A stretch of DNA of 63,967 bases, the filler included, from Octopus bimaculoides (Eukaryota): NCBI RefSeq assembly GCF_001194135.2. It is 9 parts of 8 records of this genome, joined end to end, with 100 filler letters (N's around TTAATTAATTAA, not from the genome) between each part and the next. Parts side by side here need not be neighbours in the genome. Positions count along the whole stretch, not along the records: positions 4,191 to 16,477 come from NC_068995.1; positions 16,578 to 39,806 come from NC_068987.1; positions 39,907 to 44,324 come from NW_026432771.1; positions 44,425 to 51,789 come from NC_068991.1; positions 51,890 to 56,940 come from NW_026315691.1; positions 57,041 to 59,288 come from NC_068991.1; positions 59,389 to 62,731 come from NC_069002.1; 2 more parts are not named here. One strand, written 5' to 3'. A program made the position numbers and the translations under genes. The notes under the pieces were generated by a model. It was given only the letters and a program-made list of their open reading frames with translations. It was not told where the DNA came from and ran no database searches. Below, piece after piece: positions 5,005 to 61,539 of the stretch (its first letter is position 1; every line of letters starts with the position of its first letter).

Positions 5005-5022
5005 GTGGCTAATAAAAGAAAT
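5005..5022 (+). mobile_element. 18-nt 3' terminus of the (GATA)n-associated Tx1-like LINE
   Basis: GTGGCTAATAAAAGAAAT is the exact reverse complement of 28214-28231 and is likewise followed by (CTAT)n. Confidence 0.6.
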
Positions 5023-5178
5023 GTATCTATCTATCTATCTATCTATCTATCTATCTATCTATCTATCTATCTATCTATCTATCTACCTATCTACCTATCT
5101 ATCTATCTATCTATCTATCTATCTACCTATCTATCTATCTATCTATCTATCTATCTATCTATCTATCTGTCTATCTAT
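5023..5178 (+). repeat. (CTAT)n tetranucleotide microsatellite
   Basis: Direct inspection. Confidence 0.95.
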
Positions 5179-5266
5179 GCGCTTGTCATCGAGAAACTGA
5201 TCGGCAAGGCGCAAACTTGCGCCGTGCCGGGCAGGAGCATCCATGACAACCTCCATCTGATGCGCT
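5179..5266 (+). mobile_element. Tx1/L1-clade LINE ORF2 (RT) fragment beginning exactly at the end of (CTAT)n
   Basis: [29 protein letters not shown] matches the L1/Tx1 RT motif Q-x-x-x-V-x-GR-x-I-x-DN; the fragment runs into an N gap. Confidence 0.8.
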
Positions 5267-8200
5267 NNNNNNNNNNNNNNNNNNNNNNNNNNNNNNNNNN
5301 NNNNNNNNNNNNNNNNNNNNNNNNNNNNNNNNNNNNNNNNNNNNNNNNNNNNNNNNNNNNNNNNNNAATACATACGCATACATACATATATATATGCATA
5401 TATATATGGATATATATATATAGATAGATAGATATATCTATATATGCATATGCATATATATATATATGCATTTCTATATGTATGCATATATATATATATA
5501 TATATATGTATATGTATATGTATTTACATGTACACAAGCACCCATATACACACGCATATATATATATGTGTAAATGTATATATATATATATATATATATA
5601 TANNNNNNNNNNACAAACACATACACAGACACTTGCACACGCACATACACACACGCGCTCACACACACTCACACGCTCGTACACACACACACACACACAT
5701 ACACACACGCAGGCGCGCACGCGCACAAACAAACAAACAGATAAGCTTCAACCGGCAACCTTTTCATATGTTAGAGCGATTTATCATCAGAGGAGCGTGG
5801 CGTGTCTGCTAGTAATTACATGTTTCATTATTGTTCTTGTTGTTATTGCTGGTGCCGCTACCACTGCTGCTGTTGCTGCTGCTACTGCTGCTACTGCTGC
5901 TGCTGCTGCTGTTATTTTGGATGTTGTTGTTGTTGTTGTTCTCCTCGTTCTTGCTCCAACGGTAATAGCGATAGCGGTGAGGGAGGAGGCGATTGCGGAT
6001 GTAGCAAGTGTGATAGTGATGATCTTGGTATATATATATATATANNNNNNNNNNNNNNNNNNNNNNNNNNNNNNNNNNNNNNNNNNNNNNNNNNNNNNNN
6101 NNNNNNNNNNNNNNNNNNNNNNNNNNNNNNNNNNNNNNNNNNNNNNNNNNNNNNNNNNNNNNNNNNNNNNNNNNNNNNNNNNNNNNNNNNNNNNNNNNNN
6201 NNNNNNNNNNNNNNNNNNNNNNNNNNNNNNNNNNNNNNNNNNNNNNNNNNNNNNNNNNNNNNNNNNNNNNNNNNNNNNNNNNNNNNNNNNNNNNNNNNNN
6301 NNNNNNNNNNNNNNNNNNNNNNNNNNNNNNNNNNNNNNNNNNNNNNNNNNNNNNNNNNNNNNNNNNNNNNNNNNNNNNNNNNNNNNNNNNNNNNNNNNNN
6401 NNNNNNNNNNNNNNNNNNNNNNNNNNNNNNNNNNNNNNNNNNNNNNNNNNNNNNNNNNNNNNNNNNNNNNNNNNNNNNNNNNNNNNNNNNNNNNNNNNNN
6501 NNNNNNNNNNNNNNNNNNNNNNNNNGCTGCTGGTGGTGGTGGTGGTGGTGGTGTCATTGGTAATGGTGCTGATGTGGACGAGGATTGTGGTAAGGAAGTT
6601 AAAAACTGAGAATAGAAATGTATTTGTACATGTATGTGATACCGTCGCTGTGTGTGTGTGTGTGTGTGTGTGTGTGTAAAGGAAAATGCTGGCTGTGACT
6701 TCGAAATTTCATTTTACTGCGTAAAACTTTATAACTATTAGCTTCACAAATCCAATAAAGTGTGATGAGGGTCTCCACACGTCTAGGATTCCACCAGCAA
6801 GAATAGAACCAAACATGTTCCATGTGTACCTATCCTTTCCAAAGAAATCCTGTTTCCAGTATTGTCTAAACCTGTGGAGCTCTCAACCATTTTTTGCCTG
6901 TCGGCCCCTTTAAGTGTTGTTTTACTCTACCGGACCTTCATAGTCATTCATTGTATATATAAAATAAATCTTACTGTATTTTTGTTATTAAATATTATTA
7001 GGAATTGTATAAAAAAGACATTTTGTGTATTGTACAAGTATAGGCAATTCATTGACCATAAATTTTAACAATAAAATCTTATATGGTCTCCCAAGAGCCA
7101 TATGGACACATAAAACAAGAAAATTACACAGAAACGTCTGCGCAGTTAGCTTTGATTTGTCCAATAATCTTTTACTAACTAGCTTGAGTTATTTCACAGA
7201 ATATCTCATTGAAGGTTTTCGTTAGAAGGAGGAATATCTCGTATATTCTTCATTAGGTATTGTTTAAACTGTGATCTGTATGATGAGCCCTTAATATCGA
7301 AAACTAAACAGAGGAAAATTAGCAGGCTTTCACAGACAAAAAAAAGTGGAAAGCTAATCCTCACGACGTGTTTCATTGATTGCCAGATCTGTCTGTTGTG
7401 CAAGGAAAGATCGTCAACAAAAACTCTATAAGTCAACAATGATTGGATACTAGCGGATTGCGTGTAGAACATTTTCATCGCATGCTCAACTAGTAGTTTT
7501 TAATTTATGTTCAGCCATGGGTAAATAACATGGTCTAAATCAACTTATTAGTCGTGACATGAGGGTGTATATATGTATATAAGTATACATATGTGTGTTT
7601 GAGTGTGTGTATAGATAGATAGATACATAAATACACACACACACACACATAAATACATACATACATGTATGCATGTATGAATAGGTGAGAAATTCATTTA
7701 ACCTTGTTTTTATCATCGTTGAACATGGCGGAACACGGTTAAACAAGGCTAAACATGATTGATGATTGTTGATTTGCTGGAGTTTGTTAAGCAGTTGTCG
7801 TTGCGTTTCAGGAAGATTTTACGAGATAGAAAAGACTGTAGATAAACAATTTCACCAGAGGTCAAGCCCCTGACATCTTCTTCTAGAATCCAATTAGGGG
7901 AATAAGTAAATGTGAAGAAGGAAGTGCTGCAATCCAGGTAGATCGGAGTAGAGAGTCATGTTAGCCCGTAGGAACGACGAGAAGCATCAAGTCATCATGG
8001 GTGGAGGATGCTTGATGATTGCATGATGACTTGCCTAGACTCCACGAACCTCTTCAATCCAGTGGCAAGACTAGGTGGTCATAACGACTTAGGACGAAGA
8101 GGGATGCAGTAAATAACCAAGATGTCTTGCCTGCAGCATCTTAATCTCTGCACTCCATGGTGCGTTGCTGCAGCGGCCTTCCTTTCGATTGAACCATAGC

Positions 8201-58960: not shown

Positions 58961-59388
58961 TGCTGCCATAATCAAACAAATCGGTAAAATTTCCAGGTGG
59001 ATAAAACCAATAAGTGGTTTCTGTGGTATGACGTCAGTGTCTGGGGAGGCTGACCGGAAGGGGAAACAGGGCAGAGGCAGCCTCGATCGGCGTTCGTGCC
59101 CTTTTCGAACGGGGCTGCGGTCAGGACAAGACGTGTTAAGCGACGGTCTAGGTTTGGGAGAAGCAGCTGCTATACCTGGTGTACTTTGGGTCGGGGCAAG
59201 CTTCAAGGATCGGATACCGCAAGACGGACTCGCAGTCGAGGAAAGGAAAACCGAGGTAAGGCGATTACATCTACTCGTACGCACACACNNNNNNNNNNNN
59301 NNNNNNNNNNNNNNNNNNNNNNNNNNNNNNNNTTAATTAATTAANNNNNNNNNNNNNNNNNNNNNNNNNNNNNNNNNNNNNNNNNNNN

Positions 59389-59652
59389 CTGTCCAAGATA
59401 ACTCGGTATCATCACCAAGTCATCTGTGTGGAGAGAGAGTGTTGAAAATTCCTTCGCTAACTGTTCGCTCTTAAAGCGTACTAGGACCGTGGCAAATTTT
59501 CGTCCCCAAGTAACATGACTTTGAAAGGGCCATATCGGTTTGAGACAAATCTCAATTTTTTGGGTGGAGAAACTCTCCGGTCGCTTCGTTTTCTTGTTGA
59601 TAAGTCTGTATGATATGTGCTTCTTGTTTGTATTTTCAATAATTGCTTTTGG
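59389..59652 (-). mobile_element. Probable Tx1/L1 ORF1 fragment, 5'-truncated at (GATA)n
   Basis: 88 codons without a stop (PKAIIENTNKK...KIEICLKPIW...WGRKFATVLVRFKSEQLAKEFS...MIPSYLGQ) and no start codon; begins at the (GATA)n edge and ends at a gap. The ORF1 assignment is from recalled similarity, not a search. Confidence 0.55.
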
Positions 59653-61539
59653 TATAGATAGATAGATAGATAGATAGATAGATAGATAGATAGATAGATA
59701 GATAGACAGATAAATTGATTGATTGACTGGCTGATTGATAGATAGTTATCAATCTACAAGAGATAGATATGCATCTATTGACTATAGATAGTAATAGCAG
59801 AGTTAATATTTTAATACCTTAATCTGTTCAATACTGCCATTTTGAAACCAAAATATTACCTTTGTTATCTCACAAACTTTCCTTCTCCCAACCTCAACCA
59901 CCCCATAATCGATTGCTACTGTTTCGATCTCCTTAGCCCTAGTCCAATCAAACATCAATTACTCTTATCAGTCTAAAGACAGTAATTGTTAATTAACCAT
60001 AGCGAGTTGTAGCCAAAATTCTATCTTCAAATAAGCGCTAATGATGTAAGTTCCATAAGATTTTTATCATTATCTGAATTCCTTCTATTTTTCCATTTTC
60101 GTTATCGTCAAATTAAATTTTGTCGTGTGAAATATCTAACGTATAGAATTAATGAAATAATTCTTTTGCTTGGTTTCAAACGTTGGATTACACTTTAAAG
60201 GTATCATACTATCTTTTAAAAATGTACGATATGGATTAACATAAATAGAGTACGGTAAAATGTGTAGCGTGTATTTTAACTGAACAAAATTAATACAATT
60301 ATATCCTTGAATCCGTCGGTAGGTTTTGTAACATCAGATGAATTTTGGGTGGATTTACTAGAGTTCACGATAGGCATGTATTTGGGCCGTGTGTAGTTGA
60401 TACCATAAACTCCGGTACTATCGTGGTCTTTAAATTTATCGACAGCCAAAGGATGAAATGCACAACTCTACAGGATTTAGAAGGAAACTTTGTGGAATCC
60501 CCTCACATTACAATAAGTTCCAGTCGAGCGTTGGAGTCGATATCATTGATTTATTCCATTTGTTGGGGCGAAATTTGAGTTTAATATTTTATTTTAAGAG
60601 CGGTGTAGTCTGAGCTCTTTTTATGAAACACGCACCTCATATTTAATAGTGGGGCGTCTCTAACATCAACCCCTCTCCTCTTTCTCCTCCTCTTCCTCCT
60701 CCTCTTTCTCCTCCTCCTCCTCCTCCTCATCATCATCATCATTATCAACAACAACACCAACAAGAACATCAGCATGATCATTTTAGGCATCGTCATCATC
60801 GTCTCATATCCATTATCGTCGTCATTTATTTTTGTCGAGTTGTTGCGTCTGTTGTACGTTATTGCACTTCGGGAAATGCTAATCAACTCTCGAAGCACTA
60901 CAATATTATCATACTGTACTGCCTCGAGAGTTGGTTCGCATTCCTTGATTTCTTGCTGTGAGTGCTAATAGTTGCCCCTGGCCACAACAAGTTGTGATGT
61001 ATTCATTCCGAATTTCTGTATACACACACACACACAAACATATAGATAGAGAGAGAGTCGGACAGACGGGCGGGCAAACAGGCAAGAAGACAGACAGACA
61101 GACTGATAGATAGATAGATAGATAGATAGATAGATAGATAGAAAGATAGATAGATAGATAAATAGATAGATAGATAGATAGATAGATAGATAGATAGATA
61201 GATAGATAGATAGATAGATAGATAGATAGATGCGTGTTTATACAGAAACATTTTTTCTTCTACTGAAGAGGATGTCAGAATTTGTAAGGTTTTCCTCAAT
61301 ATTTACCTTTACTTTTATTTGAATTCAGCCAGTGGTCGTGGCTGCACTGGAGCACCGACTTTAATCCGATAGATTTTTATAACAAACTCACTTTTCAACC
61401 CACTCTTCGGAACTGTCTCTGAGGAATTAGTGAATTGGTTAGAACTACACTTCTTTGTGTTTCCTGCCGCCATATGAGTGCTACTGGTGCCCCTCATAAA
61501 AAAAAAATTCCAATTATTCCTTGAATAGTGCTAGAAGAA

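Follow-up and report, generated by a model that had tools for sequence, protein, structure and literature searches.

What draws a mobile element to the same simple repeat on separate contigs of one genome? The question is raised by a stretch of 63,967 nucleotides (nt; filler included) from Octopus bimaculoides (assembly GCF_001194135.2), here called the window, in which pieces of a long interspersed nuclear element (LINE) are spread over three separate parts, drawn from contigs C15, C7 and C22 of the 2.34-Gb genome, and adjoin arrays of (TATC)n, or (GATA)n on the other strand. The pieces come from a single family that is flanked by TATC on both sides in a fixed strand and phase, lacks poly(A), is truncated to varying extents at its 5' end and in some cases appears to be bordered by target duplications. 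We consider it likely that this is a young, multi-copy L1/Tx1-like LINE, most of whose copies share a single orientation and phase within (TATC)n/(GATA)n, and that its APE endonuclease nicks the GATA strand and so primes reverse transcription.

One LINE behind the window fragments

On the plus strand of the window, a 19-nt 3' terminus (5005-5023), consisting of AATAAA and then 7 nt without poly(A) and recurring in 87 of the 91 sampled copies described below, is followed by a (TATC)n array with TACC and TGTC variants (5024-5178). The array leads into a second, 5'-truncated copy (5179-5266), which starts inside the reverse transcriptase (RT) domain near position 3829 of the ~5,990-nt working reference used for all junction positions and ends at an assembly gap; two copies thus lie stacked in one TATC array. 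The domain was recognized as RVT_1 on the homologous open reading frame (ORF) of genomic copies L114 and L112. A minus-strand copy runs from 29028 (29034 with a 6-nt array overlap) to 28213, with a 473-N assembly gap inside. It comprises the C-terminal 86 amino acids (aa) of ORF2 (28769-29028; reference ~5366-5625; 74% identical to the C-terminus of a related protein, P0001) and the end of the 3' untranslated region (UTR; 28213-28295), with TATC arrays, in element sense, on its 5' side (29029-29114) and its 3' side (28139-28212). The third piece, also on the minus strand, is a 5'-truncated copy starting inside ORF1 (59389-59655; reference ~835; locus L091), cut by the joint between two parts and bordered on its 5' side by a (TATC)n array in element sense (59654-59723).

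An earlier note on this DNA had placed every visible junction of the element at a (CTAT)n edge. The five junctions that it named are present, and the arrays adjoining them all read TATC in element sense; the sixth, on the 5' side of the 5005-5023 piece, joins a non-TATC repeated motif found again in three unrelated loci. The 3' terminus, given there as 18 nt, is one nucleotide longer, with TATC beginning at 5024, and the three different internal positions noted for the 5' junctions (~835, 3829 and 5360) are borne out.

The three fragments alone gave no Pfam match. DNA searches of the genome with these fragments returned 2,226, 123 and 476 candidates, 40 of each being scored, and when the 86 C-terminal aa were searched at the protein level there were 10,940 candidates, 150 of which were scored. 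A family 3' end lies 2.5-7.5 kb downstream, on the same strand, in 19 of 38 ORF1-anchored loci, mostly across assembly gaps; for the window ORF1 copy it lies 5,536 nt further on in the genome. ORF1, RT and C-terminus are joined in locus L112, and in L114 a head-to-tail pair of copies is both preceded and separated by five TATC units. Because of this shared 3' end and the linkage in L112 and L114, the three window fragments can be assigned to one ~6-kb L1/Tx1-like LINE, as had been supposed.

The element consists of a short 5' UTR, ORF1, ORF2 (APE, RT and C-terminus) and a T-rich 3' UTR of ~350 nt, followed by AATAAA, 7 nt and the end. ORF1 has a Thr/Asn-rich front and one CX2CX4HX4C knuckle, the latter found in copies from five of six loci examined; it gave no match to Pfam, and hence neither Transposase_22 nor RRM was detected. 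On genomic copies L114 and L112, ORF2 contains APE (PF03372, E 2.4e-10) and RT (PF00078, E 1e-25) domains. No unbroken ORF2 occurs among the copies seen, and young copies carry gaps mid-element. Among named proteins, the best match to the RT region comes from Argonauta hians (67%) and the best match to ORF1 from Octopus bimaculoides (84%). The exact 25-nt 3' end occurs 1,578 times in the genome and the 20-nt 5' start motif 212 times, and 5' junctions are distributed over the whole length, revealing a fixed 3' end with variable 5' truncation.

Several structural peculiarities were observed in passing. A 5'-truncation hotspot lies at reference ~5834, in a T run of the 3' UTR ~160 nt from the end (L145, L147, L157, L167, L182, L184, L188, L196, L205, L207, L208, L218 and L220). 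Copies of different subfamilies are stacked head to tail in L114 and L129 (G000:C2:83356000-83365900), and also in L288 and L299, parted by a few TATC units and several with internal deletions. In L101 (~1180-2870; G000:C2 near 156137000) the 5' end is full, the element breaks off in ORF1, and a ~110-nt repeat of its own upstream flank and then a TATC array follow; either this copy has lost its 3' part and has a very long duplication, or the locus was rearranged locally. In L106, from ~2340, an ORF1 fragment runs into several kb of degenerate TTCG/TACG tetranucleotide satellite.

TATC at both ends of the element

The strength of the association was measured in two sets of copies. The position-sampled set consists of the first 91 family 3' ends by position on contig C1; 85 copies were traced from these ends, of which one was a duplicate and 50 had a resolved 5' junction. 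The similarity-found set comprises 78 resolved 5' junctions, 17 gap copies and 29 duplicates having been dropped. The strict rule for a 5' junction was the presence of TATCTATC within 30 nt upstream, and the looser rule three units within 40 nt. By the strict rule, the background rate was 0.8% across these loci (109 of 13,322 positions) and 0.9% across the window.

In the position-sampled set, 36 of the 50 resolved 5' junctions (72%) pass the strict rule, an enrichment of about 90-fold over background, and 38 pass the three-unit rule, while the opposite-strand repeat GATAGATA was found upstream of none of the 50. The similarity-found set gave TATCTATC upstream of 62 of its 78 junctions. Full-length starts behave in the same way: of the 30 that come first by position, all but two have TATCTATC in the 30 nt upstream (28 of 30), those two following an AATG repeat and a TA/TATC mix, and the starts of more distant subfamilies likewise follow TATC.

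At the other end of the element, 1,033 of the 1,578 exact 3' ends (65%) go on with G or C and then TATCTATC. The five bases after the terminal base of the 91 position-sampled ends read T in 91, A in 91, T in 90, C in 83 and T in 90; perfect repeat extends for at least 8 nt in 66 of these ends, at least 5 nt in 82 and at least 3 nt in 90, and poly(A) follows the element in none of the 91. A second subfamily set (81-87% aa identity; 20 loci) has other last bases and the same TATC phase wherever the end is visible, and subfamilies that differ both in last bases and in 5' starts share the same repeat and phase. A same-strand neighbour copy stands at 5 of the 91 sampled ends, as at 5005-5266 in the window; one such case, L184, looks like a local duplication.

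Since TATC precedes full-length and truncated 5' ends alike, in one orientation, the repeat is the target and not only a tail, as the earlier note had argued. Kojima defined a target preference as one sequence type in more than 20% of flanks (PMC4494074), a figure well exceeded by 65% of 3' ends and 72% of resolved 5' ends.

The overlap between element and flank at 5' junctions averages 1.2 nt, with a mode of 1, versus an expectation of 0.66, as measured on the 61 of 77 junctions that abut; extra bases are present at the remaining 16. The idea, suggested by the 29028 junction, that 5' truncation occurs mainly at element-internal CTATC was dropped given this modest overlap. In L172 (~2600, minus strand) a short stretch of the element stands inverted at the 5' end, resembling the product of twin priming; there is no TATC at that junction.

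Open reading frames in the fragments had been read as a sign of recent activity. These frames are only 29-88 aa long, and evidence for youth comes instead from the best 40 C-terminal copies, which are 97-100% identical to the window copy. The insertion in L019 is shared, in that contigs from three further samples of the species cross one or both of its junctions; together with copy identity this supports youth, not current activity. In a second organism the flank contigs stop at 1077 and 2412, close to the element edges (1081-2411), each leaving 10-11 letters unplaced, as would be expected of an empty site; no contig joined the two flanks, and the site, with its single TATC unit, does not bear on a long pre-existing array. 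The element was also found in RNA: three runs from a single study gave 466-613 matching reads out of 11.5-12.9 million, with mates on both strands and mixed subfamilies. These reads, which cover the ORF2 C-terminus and the start of the 3' UTR and not the 3' terminus, demonstrate presence in RNA only, not autonomous transcription.

A proposed insertion mechanism and its competitors

Information on the site of integration comes from apparent target duplications that run into non-repeat DNA. These were found in 5 of 81 two-ended copies, with lengths of 14-16 nt (L161), 38-40 nt (L186), 10 nt (L019 and L164) and 6-7 nt (L174), those of L161 and L186 being long and clear. All five begin at the T of the TAT directly after the element. 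The L174 site reads TATT, not TATC, indicating that the letters after the element are derived from the target. Sites with one repeat unit were used in L019, L174, L143 and L029, and no extra units appeared at the 3' end, suggesting that a short motif is recognized and that any repeat tail on the RNA is short or absent.

In this class of element, target choice is thought to be set by the specificity of APE (PMC4494074, PMC3812793). Because the few duplications start at TAT right after the element, the first nick would likely fall in the GATA strand at 5'-GATA/GA-3', within 0-2 nt. The 3' end of the nicked strand, ending in GATA, would then prime complementary DNA (cDNA) synthesis at the last base of the element; base-pairing of this primer with a short UAUC(U) stretch, read through where the RNA ends 7 nt past AATAAA, would probably help. 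A second nick is proposed a few to ~40 nt downstream, leaving duplications usually hidden inside the repeat, and the 5' end would be joined with an overlap of 0-2 nt. A short TAT(C)T motif is likely the minimal site; since repeats contain it over and over, most copies but not all would lie in arrays and some in the tail of an earlier copy.

Several observations weigh against this model or limit it. One of the six window junctions lacks a TATC repeat, and at 29028 there is a 6-nt overlap with a CTATC carried by the element itself; because of that coincidence this junction is, taken alone, weak evidence and the weakest of the five named. Of the 50 5' junctions resolved in the position-sampled set, 14 do not pass the strict rule, the failures including degenerate arrays, mis-called junctions and true exceptions without an array (L156, L174, L185 and L172), and 25 of the 91 3' ends are followed by less than 8 nt of perfect repeat. 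The specificity for (GATA)n first claimed is therefore not strict; what stands is a strong preference, stranded and phased, but not absolute. The 5' ends of 34 of the 85 traced copies fall in assembly gaps and were dropped from the count. The number of duplications is by itself weak, since among shuffled pairs the mean count was 1.0 and the highest 5. Should the first letters of the repeat belong to the RNA, the place of the nick would be uncertain by 0-2 nt. A long GATA array was not observed at any empty site.

The strongest competing explanation holds that RNA-DNA pairing is the main driver of targeting: an RNA ending in (UAUC)n from the flank of its donor would capture any GATA repeat that is nicked or broken, and the endonuclease would be loose. 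Microsatellites are fragile, the element lacks poly(A), TAT after its last base is almost invariant, and its end lies only 7 nt past AATAAA, so that transcription would likely continue into the repeat. Pairing through a long tail would, however, often add repeat units, and none were gained at the four one-unit sites, nor does the TATT of L174 agree with a TATC-copying RNA. We regard pairing as the main driving force as unlikely, though its probability is not negligible; it can work together with an endonuclease nick rather than replace it.

That the element itself makes the arrays, the repeat being its tail and the upstream arrays arising from slippage or template jumps at insertion and later expansion, is very improbable. 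Many 3' repeat runs are short, repeat tails end other LINEs (PMC3747384), and the absence of a demonstrated long empty array also speaks for such an origin. Yet arrays precede full-length and variously truncated 5' ends, the upstream arrays often grade into older TGTC/TACC/TCCA repeats, and the L161 and L186 duplications pass from repeat into unique flank, placing the repeat at the site beforehand. Random insertion followed by mere retention in GATA repeats, a passive accumulation of the kind argued for Waldo-A/B near CA repeats (PMC3812793), is already largely refuted by strand and phase and has almost no probability left, given the base-precise phase, the complete lack of opposite-strand cases, the enrichment over background, the near-identity of copies and a sister family that sits in a different repeat of the same genome.

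Relatives, a sister family and significance

Insertion of APE-type elements into microsatellites has precedents. From its sequence the octopus element is an APE-type retrotransposon without long terminal repeats (non-LTR), of the L1 group. In a search of solved structures with P0001, in a PDB that lacks most LINE clades, human L1 ORF2p matched at E ~1e-50 versus ~1e-24 for R2, and APE matched only L1-type endonucleases; zf-RVT (PF13966) is present in the closest relatives. Membership in Tx1 is likely, judging from domain layout and not from a tree with named Tx1 elements, of which none was returned by the searches for relatives. Type I ORF1 is defined by RRM and/or a CCHC knuckle (PMC5203782), and the octopus ORF1 is of this type, with a CCHC knuckle rather than Transposase_22. 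Human L1 ORF2p (PDB 8c8j, 8sxt) is the closest solved structure for both APE and RT, and human L1 shares 5' truncation and probably target duplications with the octopus LINE; it differs in its poly(A) tail, weak TTAAAA preference and Transposase_22 ORF1, in contrast to the tailless octopus element with its CCHC ORF1.

Among microsatellite-targeting elements, Kibi and Koshi, of the Tx1 clade in teleost fish, insert into (TC)n and (TTC)n, respectively (PMC4494074, PMC3812793). They too are APE-type non-LTR elements with sequence-specific insertion, set apart by target and host, since the octopus LINE is flanked by TATC and resides in an octopod. Tx1-1_Crp and its crocodilian relatives target (TTCC)n/(TTTC)n (PMC4494074) and resemble the octopus LINE in having a preference, not strict specificity, for a tetranucleotide microsatellite, but their targets are all-pyrimidine on one strand, unlike TATC, and their hosts belong to another phylum. 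Further targets are ACAY for Waldo, AC for Mino and TAA for Dong (PMC3812793), and (TG)n for Togen (PMC4640811). These four are likewise microsatellite-targeting non-LTR elements and differ in the repeat targeted. They belong to other clades (R1, R4 and NeSL-related).

In Octopus vulgaris, 13 recently active L1-Tx1 families with 421 insertions have been listed (PMC13282606, Table 1), and the present LINE or a relative may be among them; the main text of that paper contains no mention of 'GATA' or 'target', and the available portion of PMC8967140, which counts octopus L1-Tx1 families, has no word on GATA or targets. No GATA/TATC-targeting LINE was found in the literature searched, which left most subscription papers out of reach. 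The GATA target is apparently unreported for LINEs, although microsatellite-targeting families as a kind are already known.

A sister family with a different target was first met as a 68%-identical fragment in L217. This older LINE (L301-L330 and L361-L390), whose relatives are 72-80% identical, ends in AATAAA and ~6 nt, followed by ATT, ATC or CTT repeats. Its exact 24-nt end occurs 250 times in the genome; 29 of the first 30 run into ATT/ATC and none into TATC, and rough calls of its 5' ends placed 14 of 28 at ATT/ATC, again without a case at TATC. A quick tree of 145 C-terminus columns, with degenerate copies included and only unnamed relatives and Argonauta for comparison, puts TATC copies (15 rows, support 95) and ATT copies on separate branches. 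Both branches belong to one group (support 99), which also contains Argonauta and two unnamed proteins and from which other unnamed relatives stand apart. Two endonuclease loop variants, SNRIGSS and ANS(V/T)GSS, occur in the genome. None of 30 divergent endonuclease copies (L331-L360) was linked to an ATT-type 3' end within the fetched flank, and 3 of their 24 resolved 5' ends lie at ATT/ATC. We tentatively propose, giving the idea somewhat less than even credence, that one octopod lineage of Tx1-like LINEs comprises sister families that share a tailless 3' design and differ by a switch of microsatellite target (TATC/GATA versus ATT/ATC, with GATA as an undescribed target), the switch residing in a few endonuclease residues.

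Other features of the window lie apart from the element. GATA/TATC arrays without an adjoining element piece occur at 11659-11759 (bordering an assembly gap), 49620-49676, 52021-52048, 55328-55371 and 61105-61231. A 158-aa open frame on the minus strand at 1650-2123 resembles, by eye, part of another LINE protein, and ~58870-59288, at the end of its part, is G+C-rich with open frames on both strands. The repeats at 3780-4090 and 27500-27680, presumably very common elements resembling short interspersed nuclear elements (SINEs), were met again in many fetched loci.

The general picture of LINE movement is unchanged by these results. The list of microsatellite targets known for APE-type LINEs is short, and PMC3812793, which names ACAY, AC, TC, TTC and TAA, describes the mechanism as not well understood. 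A young family with more than 1,500 ends offers unusual statistical power for locating the nick and reading the preferred site, and target switching becomes testable through a sister family that occupies a different repeat of this genome. As animal genomes are rich in GATA repeats, an element seeking them bears on the interruption of arrays and on array-based markers. If the proposal of switched sister families is true, the pair would constitute a natural experiment in the retargeting of an APE endonuclease, and the young family would be one of the main agents that split GATA arrays and spread them through octopus genomes.

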